Below are positions 307 through 6,524 of a stretch of DNA of 40,903 bases, piece by piece. The stretch is from positions 1 to 40,903 of the IMG/VR virus record IMGVR_UViG_3300025536_000004; one strand, given 5' to 3'. This DNA is from a virus. The translations under genes and the position numbers were made by a program. Below the pieces are notes generated by a model that saw only the letters and a program-made list of their open reading frames with translations, made no database searches and was not told the origin of the DNA. Position 1 is the stretch's first letter. Each line of letters begins with the position of its first letter.

Positions 307-804
307 ATGAGCGCAGGTGATATAAAAATCGTAGACTTGGGAGGCAGAAATGTCTCACCAGTTAGGCGATTTGTTACGGAGTCTGCCGAAACTGCTATCA
401 ATCCTGGCGAACCAGTAGTCATTTCTAATACAAATGTCTATGTGATTGCTGCCGTGGATGCTGATGGTGTGTGTTACGCAGATTACTTCGTAGGAATTGC
501 CGCAAAGGTATCATCTCATTCGGCTTCTGCTGACGGCTATGTGGACGTTTATCTCGACCTTCCTGGTGTTATTTACGCAGCCAAGCCAAAGACGGCTGGT
601 TCGTGTAATACCCAAGCCAAGATTGATGCTCTTATGTTTAAGAGAGTCATTCTTGATTTGACTGCATCGAAGTACACGGTAGACACGGCGAATGCCGGGG
701 GTGTAACCCAATCAATCATGATCATGGGTGGCAACCCCGACCAAGACGAGTGCTACTTTGCGGTGTGTGACCAAGGAACGTGGAGAAACTACGGACACGG
801 ATAA
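307..804 (+). CDS. Putative head decoration/cement protein (165 aa)
   Basis: Lies between the scaffold-like and capsid genes (lambda D-E-like order). Beta-rich pattern GEPVVISNTNVYVIAA...FVGIAAKV...DGYVDVYLDLPGVIYAA resembles small decoration proteins; motif-level only. Confidence 0.35.
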   Translation: MSAGDIKIVDLGGRNVSPVRRFVTESAETAINPGEPVVISNTNVYVIAAVDADGVCYADYFVGIAAKVSSHSASADGYVDVYLDLPGVIYAAKPKTAGSCNTQAKIDALMFKRVILDLTASKYTVDTANAGGVTQSIMIMGGNPDQDECYFAVCDQGTWRNYGHG

Positions 805-813
805 TAAACTACT

Positions 814-3248
814 ATGAGTTATTCAAGCGGATTAAATCCCAATGCCGTTAAGACAGCCTTAGATGATATTTTTGACCAGGAGTATAATGCGGAGACACAT
901 CCTCAGTATGCTTCGGCAGAAACAGAGGCAGTTTTCCACCAGGATACGGCGGAAAACGCAGCGGTAATTTGGGAATTGTTTAAGGGAGTCGGAAACTGGG
1001 AACAACGAGCTGAAGAGCAAGATGTTCCACAGGGAACGCCTCGAATTGGAAATCAAAAGACCTTCTCAGTACTCAACTTCTCTAAGAGTGTTGACGTACC
1101 AAAGAACTTCTTCGATAGATTTTTGACATATCAACTTGCATAGGGTAGGATTACCTTATGAAAGAGAATGTCAGTCAGTTGGATAGATACCAGCGTTACA
1201 GATTAAGACACCCAGAGAGGATACGACAGCACCTTAAAAACTATCGTCTTAATCATCCAGAAAAAATTAAGGAATTTCGTACTCGATACTACGAGAAACA
1301 TAAAGAAGAAATAAAGAGAAAGGAGTTAAAAAAGTATCGTAGTAATAGGGAGGAAATCCTAAAGAAAAGGGCAACATACAGGAAAGACAATCGCATTAAA
1401 ATTCTCACAAGCAGTAGAAGACAGATTCTGAAGAAGTATGGGATGACAGCCGAAGATTACGAGAGTCTTCGTGAGAAACAAGAAGGCAGGTGTGCGATTT
1501 GCAATGTGCATTTCTCAGAAAAGGTGATTCTTGGTCGTATGCCGTCCATAGACCATTGTCATCAAACTGGAAAAGTAAGGGGTCTTCTTTGTATGACTTG
1601 CAACACCAAGTTGGGTGTACTGGAAAATAAGGTATTTATTCAACAGGCAGAAAAATATCTCAATAAAGATATTGTTGTCGAAGTGAAAATGGGTTAAACG
1701 GGGAAACTCCAGAACGGACAATCCCGTACCAAGCTAGAGGTTAAAATCTTTAGACGGTCGAACGACTAGGTGGTGAACCTCGCAAGAGAACATAACCCAC
1801 CCACGAAACCCCATTACTCGAAAGAGTAAAGATATAGTCTGAACATTACAGGAATGTAATGAGAGGGGGAATAAAGAGTCCCTCTGGTAACAAGAAGGAC
1901 AATATGCATAAAGCGTTTGCTTTCGCACTGTGCATATAAAACTGGGATAACTTCGGGGGAACTCCGTTAAAAGGAAAATCCCGACCCAAGTATGAGGTTA
2001 AAATCTCATAAAGGGCGAACGACTAGAGGGTGAACCTCGCAAGAGAACATAATCCTTCCACGAAACCCCAGCACCGAAAGGTGAAGATATAGTCTAAGCA
2101 CCAAACGAACCTTGATATTGATAGCATTTTATGATACATTAAGTTGTATGATAACATGTGCAAAATGTAAGAAACTCGGTAAAACATGCGGTAGCTGTAA
2201 AGAGTATGGGAGGAAGTACAGTAAGGCCCACCGAAGCGAGATGAATGAATACAGCAATGTATATTACTACAAGAACAAAGAATGGATTAGGGCAAAGGCT
2301 CAGGAGAAAAGAGCTTTAGAGGGAGAGAAGTATATGAACTGGAGAAGGAGGCCAAGACTCAAAAGAGTGTATGGAATAACCCAAGACCAGTTCAACGAAA
2401 TGCTTTCTGCTCAGGGTGGTCTTTGTAAAATCTGTAGAAACGAGTTTAATGAGATGTTAAGACCCTGTGTTGACCACTGTCATAAGACAGGAAGGGTCAG
2501 GGGGCTGCTCTGTAGAAAGTGTAACCTCATCTTAGGGCAGATAGAAAAGAACAACATCGAAATTGCATTGATTAGTCAATATTTAAAATAAGTTGGTGAA
2601 GTAAGGGATAAAGAGCCTTTACGATAATAATACTAGGGTGCTTACGAGAAAATGGTTCGCAACTTCGCCCGTCGTGCTCGCACGACCCGTGATTCAAATG
2701 CGATGGCTATTTTCCGAACAGCTACCACAACTACCACGACAGCAGATGGTGTGGCTTTGATTTCAGATTCACACATTAACTTGAATGGTACGACAGTTAA
2801 TAACAAGGTTACGGGAGCTTTGAGCGAAACAACCTTGAACACCGCCATCGTTCAGCTTTTAGAAATGAAAGCAGAAGATGACGTTGTTGATGGTTCACTC
2901 GCTCAGACTCTCTTGGTTCCTCCGGCTCTCTATAAGAGTGCTGTTGAAATCACTGAATCAGAGCTTCGCTCAGGAACTGCCAACAACGATATGAACGTCT
3001 ACTCAGCTAAGTATGGAATTAACGTCTATACTTCCCAGTTCTTGGGAGCGGCTGCTGGAGGTTCAGACGCAGCGTGGTGGTTATTGGGTAACAACCACTC
3101 TATCTACCGATTCGTTCGGCAGGGAGTACAGACCGACCTTGTGGACTACAAAACCCAGCGGAACAACAACTACATCTACAAAGGTGAGTTCCGTGAGGTT
3201 GTAGGCCCGATGTCGTTTGAAGGAATAGTGGGTTCGAGTGGCTCGTAA
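814..3248 (+). CDS. Major capsid protein gene in three exons (814..1116, 1898..1909, 2637..3248) split by two group I introns; spliced product 308 aa
   Basis: The 814 ORF stops at 1141 and the capsid-like frame resumes at 2637, right after an in-frame TAG. All junctions fall on codon boundaries, giving ...PKNFFD/DNMH/GAYEKMVRNFARRA.... Sits after the scaffold gene; capsid-like sequence pattern. Confidence 0.8.
1117..1897 (+). mobile_element. Group I intron 1 (781 nt) with the homing endonuclease ORF in the P1 loop
   Basis: P1 CUUCGAU 1110-1116 / GUCGAAG 1677-1683 with U1116.G1677 wobble. P10 AUUGUU 1671-1676 / GACAAU 1898-1903. P7 GACUA 1764-1768 / UAGUC 1835-1839. J8/7-P7 hallmark AAGAUAUAGUC 1829-1839; omega-G 1897. 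Core is paralogous to intron 2. Confidence 0.8.
1158..1697 (+). CDS. Intron-encoded HNH homing endonuclease, endonuclease VII type (179 aa)
   Basis: CAICN...SIDHCHQTGKVRGLLCMTCNTKLG His-Me finger motif. N-terminal basic repeats (RLRHPERI, RLNHPEKI). ORF lies between the 5' splice site and the internal guide sequence. Confidence 0.85.
   Translation: MKENVSQLDRYQRYRLRHPERIRQHLKNYRLNHPEKIKEFRTRYYEKHKEEIKRKELKKYRSNREEILKKRATYRKDNRIKILTSSRRQILKKYGMTAEDYESLREKQEGRCAICNVHFSEKVILGRMPSIDHCHQTGKVRGLLCMTCNTKLGVLENKVFIQQAEKYLNKDIVVEVKMG
1898..1909 (+). other. 12-nt capsid micro-exon GACAAUAUGCAU (Asp-Asn-Met-His) between the two introns
   Basis: Bounded by omega-G 1897 of intron 1 and the U1909.G1930 P1 wobble of intron 2. 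In frame with exons 1 and 3. Confidence 0.7.
1910..2636 (+). mobile_element. Group I intron 2 (727 nt) with the homing endonuclease ORF in the P9 loop
   Basis: P1 AUAUGCAU 1902-1909 / GUGCAUAU 1930-1937. P10 GCACU 1925-1929 / GGUGC 2637-2641. P7 GACUA 2021-2025 / UAGUC 2090-2094. AAGAUAUAGUC 2084-2094. P9 stem CACCAA 2099-2104 / UUGGUG 2593-2598 encloses the ORF. P9.x hairpin 2601-2622 has loop AUAAAGAG as in intron 1. Omega-G 2636. Confidence 0.8.
2148..2591 (+). CDS. Intron-encoded HNH homing endonuclease, endonuclease VII type (147 aa from ATG 2148; the track starts at TTG 2112)
   Basis: CKICRN...CVDHCHKTGRVRGLLCRKCNLILG motif; N-terminal CxxC...CxxC zinc-ribbon-like segment. Confidence 0.85.
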   Translation: MITCAKCKKLGKTCGSCKEYGRKYSKAHRSEMNEYSNVYYYKNKEWIRAKAQEKRALEGEKYMNWRRRPRLKRVYGITQDQFNEMLSAQGGLCKICRNEFNEMLRPCVDHCHKTGRVRGLLCRKCNLILGQIEKNNIEIALISQYLK

Positions 3249-3274
3249 ACCAAGTAATAATACAATTAACAATA

Positions 3275-3799
3275 ATGACTACAATCTACAAAGTCTTGTT
3301 GGGAGTAGCGTTATTGCTTGGCGTTGCTGGGCTTTTCCTCCCACAAGTTGTATCGGTTCTCGGAGGTACAACCAATTTGGACTCGTTGACTCTATCAGGA
3401 ACCCTGACGGCAGCAACGATTGTCAATACTGGTTCATTCATCAGTGATGCAATCTCGGCTACTACTGGGTTTTCCATCGCTGGCGGAGCAACTACCACGG
3501 TTTCTAACTGTACTAGCACGTCGTGGAATCCAGGGGCGATTTCTACTTCTACTGTTGCAACTACAACCGTGACTGCTATCCCAGGAATTACAGCAGGTGA
3601 TATTGTTTCCTTATCAATTGACACCTCAACCGTGTCATCCACTAACCAAGTTGCAGCTATCCTCTCTGGTGCGGTTTCCCTTTCGGGAGCGAGCACTGGG
3701 ACGATTACTGCACAGCTTTCCTGGCCCGCTACGGGCCCGGCAGCGGGAGTGTGGGATATTGCAACAACCACCTTGCGTGCCTGTTGGAGACGGCAGTAA
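3275..3799 (+). CDS. Thr/Ser-rich protein with an N-terminal hydrophobic signal/anchor-like segment (174 aa)
   Basis: MTTIYKVLLGVALLLGVAGLFLPQ... followed by a T/S/A/G-rich beta-like sequence; directly downstream of the capsid gene. Confidence 0.65.
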   Translation: MTTIYKVLLGVALLLGVAGLFLPQVVSVLGGTTNLDSLTLSGTLTAATIVNTGSFISDAISATTGFSIAGGATTTVSNCTSTSWNPGAISTSTVATTTVTAIPGITAGDIVSLSIDTSTVSSTNQVAAILSGAVSLSGASTGTITAQLSWPATGPAAGVWDIATTTLRACWRRQ

Positions 3800-3835: not shown

Positions 3836-4312
3836 ATGGAGGGAAAGGTCTTAAAAATAAAAATTATGAAACATACATCATTAATCATTCTATCAGTAGC
3901 ATTGGTTGTGTCGGCTTTCGTTTTATCGTCTAATGGTAGTACATCAAGCATTTTGGGTGGTGTTGAAACAGACGTTGTGAATACTGGTTTCGTGGTAGTA
4001 ACCTCGACGGTCAACACAACCGCTACGCAGGTTTTTGCCTCAGTTACCTCAACAGCGACACTCATCAACTTCACCTCGTCAACATTCACCTGTAAGCCAG
4101 ACGATCAAGGGACAACTGTCGCTTCTTCAACCGTAGTGGCGGGAGCAGGATTCATTCTCTCAGCGCACCAGGCAACGACAACTAACGTAGGGTTGCCATC
4201 TCAGGCGACTTTCGGAAGATGTGTCGCAGGGATGTATAACTGTGTTCCATTCAAGGGAACACTGAACTGTGTGGCTAACGTAGCTGCTGTAATAACAAAA
4301 GTATCTAACTAA
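3836..4312 (+). CDS. Thr/Ser-rich protein with an N-terminal hydrophobic segment (158 aa; alternative start 3866)
   Basis: GGAGG 7 nt upstream of ATG 3836. KHTSLIILSVALVVSAFVLSS anchor-like segment; Cys-containing C-terminal part. Confidence 0.6.
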   Translation: MEGKVLKIKIMKHTSLIILSVALVVSAFVLSSNGSTSSILGGVETDVVNTGFVVVTSTVNTTATQVFASVTSTATLINFTSSTFTCKPDDQGTTVASSTVVAGAGFILSAHQATTTNVGLPSQATFGRCVAGMYNCVPFKGTLNCVANVAAVITKVSN

Positions 4313-4314
4313 TA

Positions 4315-4911
4315 ATGGAAGAAACATTGGGGGCTGTAGAACTAGGGAACGAAGAGGTCGGAGAGACCCGGGTTTTGCAACCCCAATTAGACCCGATTAC
4401 TGACGATGTTCTGAATCTGAAGATACAAAGTCTCGCTAATTCAGTGACCCTTTCTCAAGTAGATACGGTTACGGTCTCTGGGACAACTTCAGAAACTGAT
4501 TTAGTAAACGTTACAATTCCAGGGGGGACTCTAGGGACTACGGGAGTAATTGGAGTTCATCTTGCGGTTACCGGCTTCTACACTAACAATGCTAGGACAA
4601 TTACTTTGAAGCTCTACTATGGATCGACTGTGGTTGTTAATGCGGGAGCATTGAGTTTAACGGGGAGTGGTATCAGTTCACAACATTTTGGGACAATAAA
4701 TGCTTATATTACTGCCGACGCTTCGGCGAATGCTCAAAATGGGGTTTTGTTAGGACTCTACAGTGATGGGGCTACGGGGAACCCACTACAAGGAGGAAGT
4801 GGAACAGCTACTGAAGACAGTAGCTCTAGCCTTACGCTACGGGTGACTGCGACAATCAGTGAGGCGGTCAGTACAATAGAAATGACAGTTCAGGGATACG
4901 TTATTTACTAA
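4315..4911 (+). CDS. Virion-module protein, function unknown (198 aa)
   Basis: ORF track; packed 2 nt after the upstream stop; beta-rich T/S/G composition. Confidence 0.65.
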   Translation: MEETLGAVELGNEEVGETRVLQPQLDPITDDVLNLKIQSLANSVTLSQVDTVTVSGTTSETDLVNVTIPGGTLGTTGVIGVHLAVTGFYTNNARTITLKLYYGSTVVVNAGALSLTGSGISSQHFGTINAYITADASANAQNGVLLGLYSDGATGNPLQGGSGTATEDSSSSLTLRVTATISEAVSTIEMTVQGYVIY

Positions 4912-4913
4912 AA

Positions 4914-6524
4914 ATGCCAAGAGTTTCACTTCTCGAAAAACCGCTTGGAGGAATGGGACTGGATTACACCCAGTCTAATTCTGCCGCTATTGAAGCGGGG
5001 AAAGACCAATACACTCGATCAACTGGGGTAAACCTATTCAACATCGGGAAGATAGGGCATATAAGCCCAGCGGAAACCTTTGATCAAGTGATGACAGATA
5101 CGAATTCCTACGTAGTATCTGTTCCTAGAGCCGAGGCAACAAAATTTGATGCCACAACGCTAACTTATCTCATGCTCGGTGGAGCCGCCAGTGCTGCACC
5201 GCGTGTTATCCGCTCAACCACTTTTCCGACCGCTCCCGATTTAAATCAGACGATTACAGCCCACGGGGGGGGTAATTTTACCTCACTTCCAGTAACAGGT
5301 TATTGGGGAGAGGACATTGTTACTTACAAGGCAAACAATGGGAGTTCAGCCGCTACGGATTACCTCTTTTACTCATGGAATGATTCCGTAGGGGGAGATG
5401 TTGGTAGATACGACTTCACAACTTTCGATGACGACTTTATGTCACAAGTAGCTACGGGAGGGTCAAATACTTATCTCGTAGCAGCTGTTCCTCACCGTAT
5501 GTTAGTTGCTCCAAATAACCATTTATATATTACGAATGGACAGTATCTGGCAGAATTTAAAGGAGCGACTGCTAATAACGGGACTATTAATAGAACTGCT
5601 ATGAACTTAGGTAATGGGTATGTATCCGTTGATATCAAAAGATATGGAAACTATATCGCGGTTTTATCTAATCGCTCTGTAGGATCAAATCTAGAAAATG
5701 CCAAGACGTTCAATGGCGAAGCACGCCTCTCTCTTATTAAGGCAAATACTTCTTTAGCTGATAACCCAGAGTTTGTATATCCTATTCCTGATAACTACGC
5801 TTCGGCTATGATTGTCTTAGACACGATATACATTTTTACCCAAGGAAAAAACAACACAGTCAAAATACTTAAATTCAATGGACAAAGTTTCACCACACTT
5901 CCAGGGAGCGAGCATCACACTAGTAAGATTGGTAATGCTCCGCTTCCTAATTGTGTAGAATTCTACAAAGACATGATTGTCTGGTCTCCTCAGAACGCTA
6001 CGGGAGGATACCTTTGTTCATATGGGCCGATGAGCTCTAAATCACGAGGGGTACACATCCCATATATATTAACAGACGGAACCAATACAACGACCGAAGT
6101 AGGAATGGTGAAAAATATAGAGCAGGTACGTTTATGGGCTGGAGTAAAATATAGCTCGACCTACAAATTAGCGAACATATCTGGATCAGGAGGGTATTTT
6201 GTGAATGGAGTGCTCCGCACCAGACTATACACGTTTCCTCACTACGCTACCATTAACAAATTTTTGTTCTACTTTTCTCAGCTTGGCACGGGCGCTAGTA
6301 TCCACATTGCACTATATCGAGATTACGATACCACCACTGATCTCCTGAACTACACCATATCTAACGCTAAGTTCGGATCAGCCAGAGAGGTTTCTGTACC
6401 AGTCAATTTAACTGGAGTGGAATCGTTCTATTTAAAGATAACATTCAACCATACCTCAATTACCAATACAGCCGCAGTTATAAGGAAGGTTGAGATGGAT
6501 TACACGCCTACAAACCAAACGTAA
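4914..6524 (+). CDS. Large structural protein with beta-propeller-like repeats; possible tail nozzle/tubular protein (536 aa)
   Basis: Recurring strand motifs YLFYSW, HLYITNG, GNYIAVLSN, DTIYIFTQG, MIVWSPQ; position in the structural module. Function is a guess. Confidence 0.6.
   Translation: MPRVSLLEKPLGGMGLDYTQSNSAAIEAGKDQYTRSTGVNLFNIGKIGHISPAETFDQVMTDTNSYVVSVPRAEATKFDATTLTYLMLGGAASAAPRVIRSTTFPTAPDLNQTITAHGGGNFTSLPVTGYWGEDIVTYKANNGSSAATDYLFYSWNDSVGGDVGRYDFTTFDDDFMSQVATGGSNTYLVAAVPHRMLVAPNNHLYITNGQYLAEFKGATANNGTINRTAMNLGNGYVSVDIKRYGNYIAVLSNRSVGSNLENAKTFNGEARLSLIKANTSLADNPEFVYPIPDNYASAMIVLDTIYIFTQGKNNTVKILKFNGQSFTTLPGSEHHTSKIGNAPLPNCVEFYKDMIVWSPQNATGGYLCSYGPMSSKSRGVHIPYILTDGTNTTTEVGMVKNIEQVRLWAGVKYSSTYKLANISGSGGYFVNGVLRTRLYTFPHYATINKFLFYFSQLGTGASIHIALYRDYDTTTDLLNYTISNAKFGSAREVSVPVNLTGVESFYLKITFNHTSITNTAAVIRKVEMDYTPTNQT

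Follow-up and report, generated by a model that had tools for sequence, protein, structure and literature searches.

A 12-nt coding exon between two predicted group I introns of a phage capsid gene: overlapping guide-helix footprints, probably a by-product of double insertion

Two self-splicing introns that lie very close together may have to bind the same few exon nucleotides, which raises the question of whether such sharing is an evolved device or follows from where the introns inserted. The question is posed by IMG/VR virus record IMGVR_UViG_3300025536_000004, of which positions 1 to 40,903 were analysed (referred to as the window; coordinates are those of this 40,903-nt stretch). Its capsid gene (814-3248) is interrupted twice, and the two interruptions are separated by a micro-exon of 12 nt, GACAATATGCAT (1898-1909), coding for DNMH (D102-N-M-H105). 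A first-pass annotation of this DNA had assigned the micro-exon to P10 of the first intron and to P1 of the second, with 1902-1903 used by both helices, and had suggested that this could act as a timer or quality control built into capsid synthesis. We conclude that the overlap is probably a geometric consequence of two introns occupying one insertion hot spot, not an evolved device.

The gene product is a Mu gpT-like major capsid protein (Pfam PF10124 and PF25209; PHROG major head protein). Joining 814-1116, 1898-1909 and 2637-3248 gives a protein of 308 aa that aligns without gaps to 33 uninterrupted homologues. Hundreds of uninterrupted capsid homologues of 307-310 aa align end to end with no gaps at the junctions; the best one, P0001, has 78% identity to the spliced protein and reads ...NFFDDNMHGAYEKMV / ...SKNFFDDNMHGAYEKMV... 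in this region. No variation occurs at D101, D102 or H105 across the 34 aligned sequences. Because the alignment to uninterrupted homologues is gapless, the junctions are fixed at 1116/1117, 1897/1898, 1909/1910 and 2636/2637, and the 12-nt segment is, as judged by this comparison, a genuine exon. The DNMH residues are found in every uninterrupted homologue, which sets the segment apart from the pseudoexon of fungal side-by-side twintrons, a spacer absent from the mature RNA. The junctions are further fixed by the U that precedes both 5' splice sites and by the G in which both introns terminate. Moving the intron 2 junctions by +1 (reading H-S-A-Y) was rejected, as it places A instead of U before the 5' splice site and breaks the contiguous P1/P10 register. 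An intronless junction of the capsid gene of the window phage would read TTCTTCGATGACAATATGCATGGTGCT.

Both interruptions are predicted self-splicing group I introns. The core of intron 1 matches Rfam RF00028 with 51.3 bits at 1627-1861 (gathering score 50), and for intron 2 the score at 1873-2117 is 24.7 bits, with E = 0.001 when searched locally and 0.025 when the whole window is searched. A relaxed-threshold Rfam scan of the whole window found no introns beyond these two. The two cores are 74% identical with every helix kept in both, and their P7 strands are the same. In an alignment of nine introns of the family, whose other members come from public contigs, RNAalifold recovered P3, P4, P5, P7.1, P7.2 and P8, with double changes in 16 of 35 pairs, and P7 (GACUA/UAGUC) was invariant. 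The family appears to be IA-like because P7.1 and P7.2 are present. Each window intron carries an open reading frame (ORF) for a putative homing endonuclease of the Endonuclease VII/HNH type, and the presence of PF02945 in both ORFs together with intronless alleles that have an intact target is what would be expected of mobile introns. The two ORFs share only 36% identity and are located in different loops (P1 in intron 1, P9 in intron 2). Since the cores are much more alike than the ORFs, by these comparisons the pair is not a recent tandem duplication. We also considered intron 2 as a dead relic and rejected it, as its core helices, omega-G, guide and ORF are all intact.

The guide helices were located by trying every G in nine introns as wobble partner of the splice-site U, and counting contiguous pairs for P1 with the 5' exon and for P10 with the 3' exon, 5' of that G. 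In each of the nine introns exactly one site joins a P1 of at least 6 bp to a P10 of at least 5 bp. The exhaustive scan of both window introns found no other G with a long P1 plus a P10 of more than 1 bp. The resulting helices are listed in Table 1. The internal guide sequence (IGS) of intron 1 lies at the same place relative to P3 as that of intron 2, and the splice-site wobbles G1677.U1116 (intron 1) and G1930.U1909 (intron 2) belong to a U.G pair found in 11 of 11 family members. The P10 footprint of intron 1 and the P1 footprint of intron 2 overlap by 2-4 nt within 1902-1905. The helix coordinates and splice sites proposed in the first-pass annotation were recovered by the guide scan and the gapless homologue alignment, and the double claim on 1902-1903 was confirmed, potentially reaching 1905. 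Its statement that the two ribozymes cannot dock the micro-exon fully at the same time also holds, in that full-length intron 1 P10 and intron 2 P1 cannot coexist. As a separate observation, AUGCAU in the micro-exon is its own reverse complement, which makes the intron 2 guide GUGCAUAU almost a copy of the exon sequence AUAUGCAU; two RNA molecules could also pair with each other through their micro-exons.

To judge the pairing scheme, P1/P10 pairing was counted over 11 related introns and compared with 500 shuffles and with slid registers. The scheme pairs 82% of cells (62% when shuffled) and contains 38 double-change cells where 11.5 are expected. Its covariation score is 0.595 against 0.18 for shuffled data, a value reached by 0 of the 500 shuffles, and slid registers give 26-52% pairing. 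By these counts the P1/P10 pairing is more than chance. The guides of P10 and P1 are contiguous in all 11 introns. By position, P10 pairs in 11/11 introns at +1 to +5, in 9/11 at +6 and in 5/11 at +7 and +8; P1 pairs in 11/11 at -1 to -6, in 10/11 at -7 and in 4/11 at -8. Nucleotide 1903 is contested by two well-supported pairs (P10 +6 and P1 -7), whereas 1902 is well supported for P10 (+5) and near chance level for P1 (-8). On these per-position counts, the claim of intron 1 on 1902-1903 is typical of the family, while that of intron 2 is typical on 1903 and near chance on 1902. Exon and guide change together among introns inserted after the D101 codon: the pair is GACAAU/AUUGUU in the window, GAUAAC/GUUAUU in loci L005 and L074, GAUAAUAUG/UAUAUUAUU in L072 and GACGAU/AUCGUU in L096. 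Relative to L005, L072-74, L096 and L099, compensatory changes fall at P10 +3, +4 and +6, the last being window nucleotide 1903.

The related loci indicate how the two introns may have come to lie so close together. A single intron family has inserted at four points in a 12-nt stretch of the capsid motif (Table 1); each 5' splice site follows a U and the guide is re-tailored each time, which suggests guide retargeting or site shifting inside a single conserved motif. Seven other distinct introns are found at the intron 1 site (L005, L072, L073, L074, L096, L099 and relatives), with a P10 of 5-9 bp and no neighbouring second intron. The tandem layout is unique to the window among about 100 related loci, and only the window has two cores ~260 nt apart. 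Most relatives are intronless with the same target sequence (41 distinct intronless alleles); the nearest relative, L094, is one of them and has TTTGATGACAATATGCACGGAGCA at the insertion site. A scan of GTDB genomes gave five intact relatives only, and few loci (L001, L002/3, L004, L005) were retrieved by searching for exact matches to the shared P7.1/P7.2 motif. A search for relatives of the intron 2 endonuclease gave a best match of 46% identity and none in IMG/VR, and it found no second intron at the H105 site. Intron 2 probably arrived after intron 1, since introns of the intron 1 type recur at their site and intron 2 and its endonuclease have no close relative. The member at 4304-4553 of L042 (D102 site, 250 nt) has a complete core, a P1 of 6 bp and a P10 of 7 bp, and is a compact candidate ribozyme.

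In the by-product reading, which we favour, two related but distinct mobile group I introns would each have invaded the same hyper-conserved capsid stretch (codons for FFDDNMHG), 12 nt apart, with the guide of each staying tailored to the uninterrupted exon sequence. The family uses a long P10 (5-9 bp) directly beside a P1 of 6-9 bp. A P10 of at least 5-6 bp and a P1 of about 7 bp add up to a footprint of 12-13 nt, therefore any two members placed 12 nt apart would overlap, in the window by 1-4 nt (1902-1905). Full-length intron 1 P10 and intron 2 P1 would then be mutually exclusive. Only distal A-U pairs are contested, and each ribozyme could work with a shortened helix, e.g. a P10 of 4-5 bp and a P1 of 7-8 bp. 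P10 is often short and is not strictly required in group I introns, and on this basis the distal pairs may be dispensable. Two cores of ~200 nt probably cannot dock together on 12 nt, and exon ligation by intron 1 and the reactions of intron 2 would be sequential. The three-exon ligation would be the intended product, and skipping of the micro-exon a defective by-product. Because the P10 of single-intron relatives is as long as that of the window, the guides appear neither adjusted to nor selected for the tandem state. The timing or quality-control role suggested in the first-pass annotation is not supported, given this equal P10 length in single-intron relatives (5-9 bp) and a tandem arrangement seen once in about 100 loci.

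Several points weigh against the by-product reading. The Rfam score of intron 2 is below the gathering threshold. The tandem state is unique, so comparative data cannot show selection on it, and the 8-bp P1 of intron 2 is without site-specific covariation, as no second intron at the H105 site was found. Secondary-structure energies ignore tertiary docking, which makes the choice of the winning helix a guess. The guide of intron 1 is also subject to competition from a local hairpin (1654-1660/1667-1673) and from the translated ORF, and simple predictions are unreliable there. The hairpin consists of 7 bp (AAUAUCU/AGAUAUU) and can sequester the distal half of the intron 1 P10 guide in minimum free energy (MFE) folds. 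As for the ORF, P1 of intron 1 closes a loop of ~560 nt, and the P10 and P1 guides coincide with roughly codons 171-176 of the 179; the RNA should not be able to form P1/P10 and be translated into the endonuclease at the same time. The ORF-in-P1-loop layout recurs in the L095-98 and L099-101 groups, and other introns at the intron 1 site have the ORF in the P9 loop.

The energies of the competing helices, which are nearest-neighbour estimates only, bear on two further explanations. Intron 1 P10 is estimated at -0.5, -2.5 and -4.9 kcal/mol for 4, 6 and 8 bp, and intron 2 P1 as a duplex at -2.3, -5.0 and -7.4 kcal/mol for the same lengths. The summed P10 and P1 energy is -7.2 to -7.9 kcal/mol whichever way the AUAU at 1902-1905 is divided, and with the contested pairs being distal A-U pairs, a split into 5 + 7 bp removes the conflict at the level of bases. 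One explanation is that there is no interaction at all: a P10 of ~5 bp and a P1 of 7 bp would exactly fill the 12 nt, and both ribozymes would dock and splice independently, even simultaneously. The minimum footprints in the family (P10 5 bp in 11/11, P1 7 bp in 10/11) do sum to 12 nt, and the energies are nearly indifferent to the split. Two folded cores would however sit on opposite ends of a stack of ~12 bp, where a steric clash seems likely. Furthermore, intron 2 is without P2, and four A residues alone tether the distal end of its P1 to its own P3. We consider fully independent splicing unlikely, and steric exclusion of the two ribozyme cores plausible.

The other explanation is that the shared nucleotides impose an obligate splicing order (e.g. 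intron 2 out before intron 1 ligates), selected as a capsid timing or quality-control step. As modelled, 1902-1937 forms a local hairpin with extension of -14.1 kcal/mol, complete ~30 nt after the micro-exon emerges from the polymerase. Because this hairpin is strong and forms early, intron 2 P1 probably wins 1902-1905, and intron 1 would be left with a marginal 4-bp P10 (about -0.5 kcal/mol) until intron 2 is gone, where single-intron relatives keep 5-9 bp. An order effect is physically plausible for this reason, and over 1902-1905 the intron 1 P10, at up to 8 bp, and the 8-bp intron 2 P1 exclude each other. Intron 1 may on the other hand finish splicing first, since its transcription is complete when the polymerase is still 727 nt short of the 3' splice site of intron 2. 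Against a selected order, the guide of intron 1 shows no adaptation, its P10 being as long as in relatives without a neighbouring intron, and the arrangement occurs once in about 100 loci, with most relatives intronless. The contest concerns distal A-U pairs, and P1 -8 is paired in just 4 of 11 introns. Intronless sister phages need no such device for late capsid expression. An obligate order selected in this way is thus quite improbable. The same low estimate applies to an ordered relay of the two ribozymes, in which intron 2 P1 captures 1902-1905, intron 1 ligates inefficiently until intron 2 is spliced (or the reverse), and the phage depends on the delay or fidelity check; if true, it would be the first natural group I ribozyme that gates another via a shared exon segment. 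Taking the parts separately, some order preference or mutual interference is plausible, a strict dependency between the two introns is unlikely and an adaptive timer is very unlikely.

Two further results of folding concern the same region. The last six bases of intron 1 (AAGAAG, 1892-1897) are complementary to exon 1 CUUCUU upstream of P1 (1108-1113), and multi-strand MFE folds show this pairing in place of P1; given the A-rich 3' tails of the family, it may be chance. Multi-strand MFE folding of exon 1, guide and micro-exon did not recover P10 and was set aside as uninformative for helices that rely on tertiary docking.

The first-pass annotation had also foreseen exon skipping that would delete DNMH in frame. 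The exon 1-exon 3 junction (1116^2637) is indeed in frame; a useful outcome is unlikely, because skipping removes the invariant D102 and H105 and the guide cross-pairings are weak. Exon 3 pairs with the intron 1 P10 guide through four G.U pairs only (+6.2 kcal/mol), and the end of exon 1 with the intron 2 guide through 2 bp only. We weighed the stronger proposal that the two similar ribozymes cooperate, as a hybrid or stepwise as proposed for orf142 of Staphylococcus phage Twort, and join exon 1 to exon 3 to give a DNMH-less capsid protein as a regular or regulatory product. The 74% identical cores and identical P7 strands make it conceivable, and a cross-intron P3 would retain 4 of 5 pairs. 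Skipping is documented for the 23-nt Twort exon, the 34-nt Coxiella exon and phage SIOphi (PMC10136302, PMC11878797). These points are set against the invariance of both residues in 34 homologues, the poor guide pairing, and the behaviour of engineered tandem introns with differentiated splice-site sequences, which show almost no skipping (PMC10136302). We regard skipping as a regular product as highly improbable.

Comparison with known systems places the window among a small number of tandem group I introns. According to summaries of Landthaler & Shub (1999), Twort orf142 is interrupted by three group I introns, the second and third enclosing a 23-nt exon, and undergoes exon skipping (PMC10136302, PMC3073962), for which a hybrid-ribozyme model was proposed (PMC10136302). 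Like that system, the window has closely related IA-type introns in tandem around a very short exon of a phage structural gene, with similar cores that could cooperate. It differs in that its exon, at 12 nt, is so small that the footprints of P10 and P1 overlap, HNH/Endonuclease VII ORFs are present in both introns, and skipping has poor guide support. The 23S rRNA of Coxiella burnetii has two group I introns around a 34-nt exon with exon skipping (PMC10136302), and among Bastillevirinae phages, for which dominant exon skipping is reported, a small exon is present in the phiNIT1 rNDPL gene and skipping was found in SIOphi (PMC11878797). These cases likewise have two self-splicing group I introns around a small exon in a bacterial or phage gene, and alternative ligation was seen in them. 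Their exons exceed 12 nt or are given without a size, overlapping guide footprints are not described, the genes differ and the introns belong to unrelated subgroups.

In the fungal mitochondrial side-by-side introns Ophiostoma cob-490 and cox3-640, a 'pseudoexon' spacer is proposed to serve P10 or P1, and a ratchet-like sequential splicing was proposed from sequence (PMC7902536, PMC8393795); exon 2 of Agaricus bisporus cox1 is 3 nt long (PMC2987802). The fungal tandem introns share with the window a very short inter-intron segment that must serve both the upstream P10 and the downstream P1. The Ophiostoma spacer is removed or non-coding, whereas the 12 nt of the window code for conserved residues and must be retained, and the fungal cases are organellar with LAGLIDADG ORFs in place of the Endonuclease VII/HNH ORFs of the phage. 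With engineered tandem Tetrahymena introns around a 24-nt exon, inclusion or skipping depends on core similarity and on the difference between P1/P10 splice-site sequences (PMC10136302). That system is artificial and uses identical introns and a longer exon; the splice sites of the window already differ from each other in sequence. A limited literature search turned up neither an exon stated to be as small as 12 nt nor overlapping P10/P1 footprints in any phage or bacterial case. The window is a new and more extreme phage instance, in which a conserved coding exon falls short of the combined length of the two guide footprints. It offers a natural substrate for studying how two ribozymes share one segment (splicing order, interference and skipping fidelity). 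The apparent retargeting of the guide to four positions in 12 nt by one family is arguably more informative, and bears on how mobile introns choose and shift their insertion sites.

Table 1. Coordinates of the capsid gene parts, predicted introns and helices in the window, and insertion points of the intron family in related loci.
Feature	Position or locus	Strand	Description	Basis
Capsid exon 1	814-1116	+	M1-D101; last 7 nt (1110-1116, CUUCGAU) are the 5' strand of intron 1 P1	Translation, homologue alignment, P1 scan
Predicted group I intron 1	1117-1897	+	781 nt, omega-G at 1897	RF00028, family alignment
Intron 1 ORF	1158-1697	+	179 aa, Endonuclease VII/HNH-type putative homing endonuclease, in P1 loop (L1)	PF02945 (9.4e-21), PHROG endonuclease VII
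Intron 1 core helices	P3 1689-1693/1810-1814; P4 1699-1703/1722-1726; P7 1764-1768/1835-1839; P8 1815-1818/1825-1828	+		Family alignment
Intron 1 P7.1 and P7.2	P7.1 1769-1773/1797-1801; P7.2 1779-1781/1786-1788	+		Family alignment
Intron 1 3' hairpins	P9 1844-1861; terminal hairpin 1862-1885	+		Read from sequence
Intron 1 P1	1110-1116 x 1677-1683		CUUCGAU x GUCGAAG, 7 bp	Guide scan
Intron 1 P10	1898-1903 x 1671-1676		GACAAU x AUUGUU, 6 bp, family-supported part	Guide scan
Intron 1 P10, extended	1898-1905 x 1669-1676		GACAAUAU x AUAUUGUU, 8 bp	Guide scan
Micro-exon	1898-1909	+	GACAATATGCAT; D102-N-M-H105, D102 and H105 invariant in 34 sequences	
Contested nucleotides	1902-1905	+	AUAU; intron 1 P10 +5 to +8, intron 2 P1 -8 to -5	
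Predicted group I intron 2	1910-2636	+	727 nt, omega-G at 2636	RF00028 (24.7 bits), core kept relative to intron 1
Intron 2 P1	1902-1909 x 1930-1937		AUAUGCAU x GUGCAUAU, 8 bp	Guide scan
Intron 2 P10	2637-2641 x 1925-1929		GGUGC x GCACU, 5 bp	Guide scan
Intron 2 core helices	P3 1942-1946/2067-2071; P4 1954-1958/1979-1983; P7 2021-2025/2090-2094; P8 2072-2075/2080-2083	+		
Intron 2 P7.1 and P7.2	P7.1 2026-2030/2054-2058; P7.2 2036-2038/2043-2045	+		
Intron 2 3' helices	P9 2099-2104/2593-2598; terminal hairpin 2603-2620	+	P9 encloses the ORF	Read from sequence
Intron 2 ORF	2148-2591	+	147 aa from ATG at 2148, Endonuclease VII/HNH type, in P9 loop	PF02945 (E about 1e-20)
Capsid exon 3	2637-3248	+	G106 to stop codon	Translation, homologue alignment
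Insertion after D101 codon (intron 1 site)	L005, L072, L073 (= L077), L074		ORF in P9 loop	
Insertion after D101 codon (intron 1 site)	L095-98 and L099-101 groups		ORF in P1 loop; endonucleases 56-58% identical to intron 1 ORF	
Insertion after D102 codon	L001 (about 5670-6450)	-		
Insertion after D102 codon	L042		250 nt, no ORF, within 4290-4560	
Insertion inside M104 codon (AU/G)	L075 (3230-4005)			
Insertion after H105 codon (intron 2 site)	Window only			

Every member of the family, with or without an ORF, has a terminal hairpin 12-20 nt before the 3' splice site, with loop AUAAAGAG and motif GGAUAAAGAGCC (in the window at 1862-1885 and 2603-2620). Its role is probably to make a tertiary contact or to position the 3' splice site. 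A search pattern of this hairpin joined to YEKM was discarded, as it gave only chance matches in unrelated genes (L085-87).

Introns of the same family are also found outside the conserved motif. Relatives have them near the capsid N-terminus, after about residue 8-14, at L004 (reverse complement, ~440-1000), L005 (reverse complement, ~3910-4350), L072 (~2320-3190), L073 (~2600-2790), and L056 and L064 (just upstream of 4001); in L072 one is located deeper into exon 1. In L002 (= L003) the intron is located in a gene that comes after a scaffold-like ORF. The family ranges widely over phage structural genes.

Genes for the terminase large subunit, a portal-like protein and the capsid all lie on the + strand of the window, which is a segment of a phage genome. 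No tRNAs were found in the window, and a megablast search of 800-3300 against INPHARED phages gave nothing beyond a chance match of 33 bp. The genomic relatives closest to the capsid gene (the GTDB contigs L089, L090 and L093) are found in metagenome-assembled genomes of the Candidate Phyla Radiation (CPR)/Patescibacteria, namely Paceibacterota, a 235-kb Moraniibacteriota contig and Saccharibacteria. From this, CPR bacteria would seem to be hosts of the phage group, infected by it or carrying it as prophage, an apparent link that is of ecological interest.

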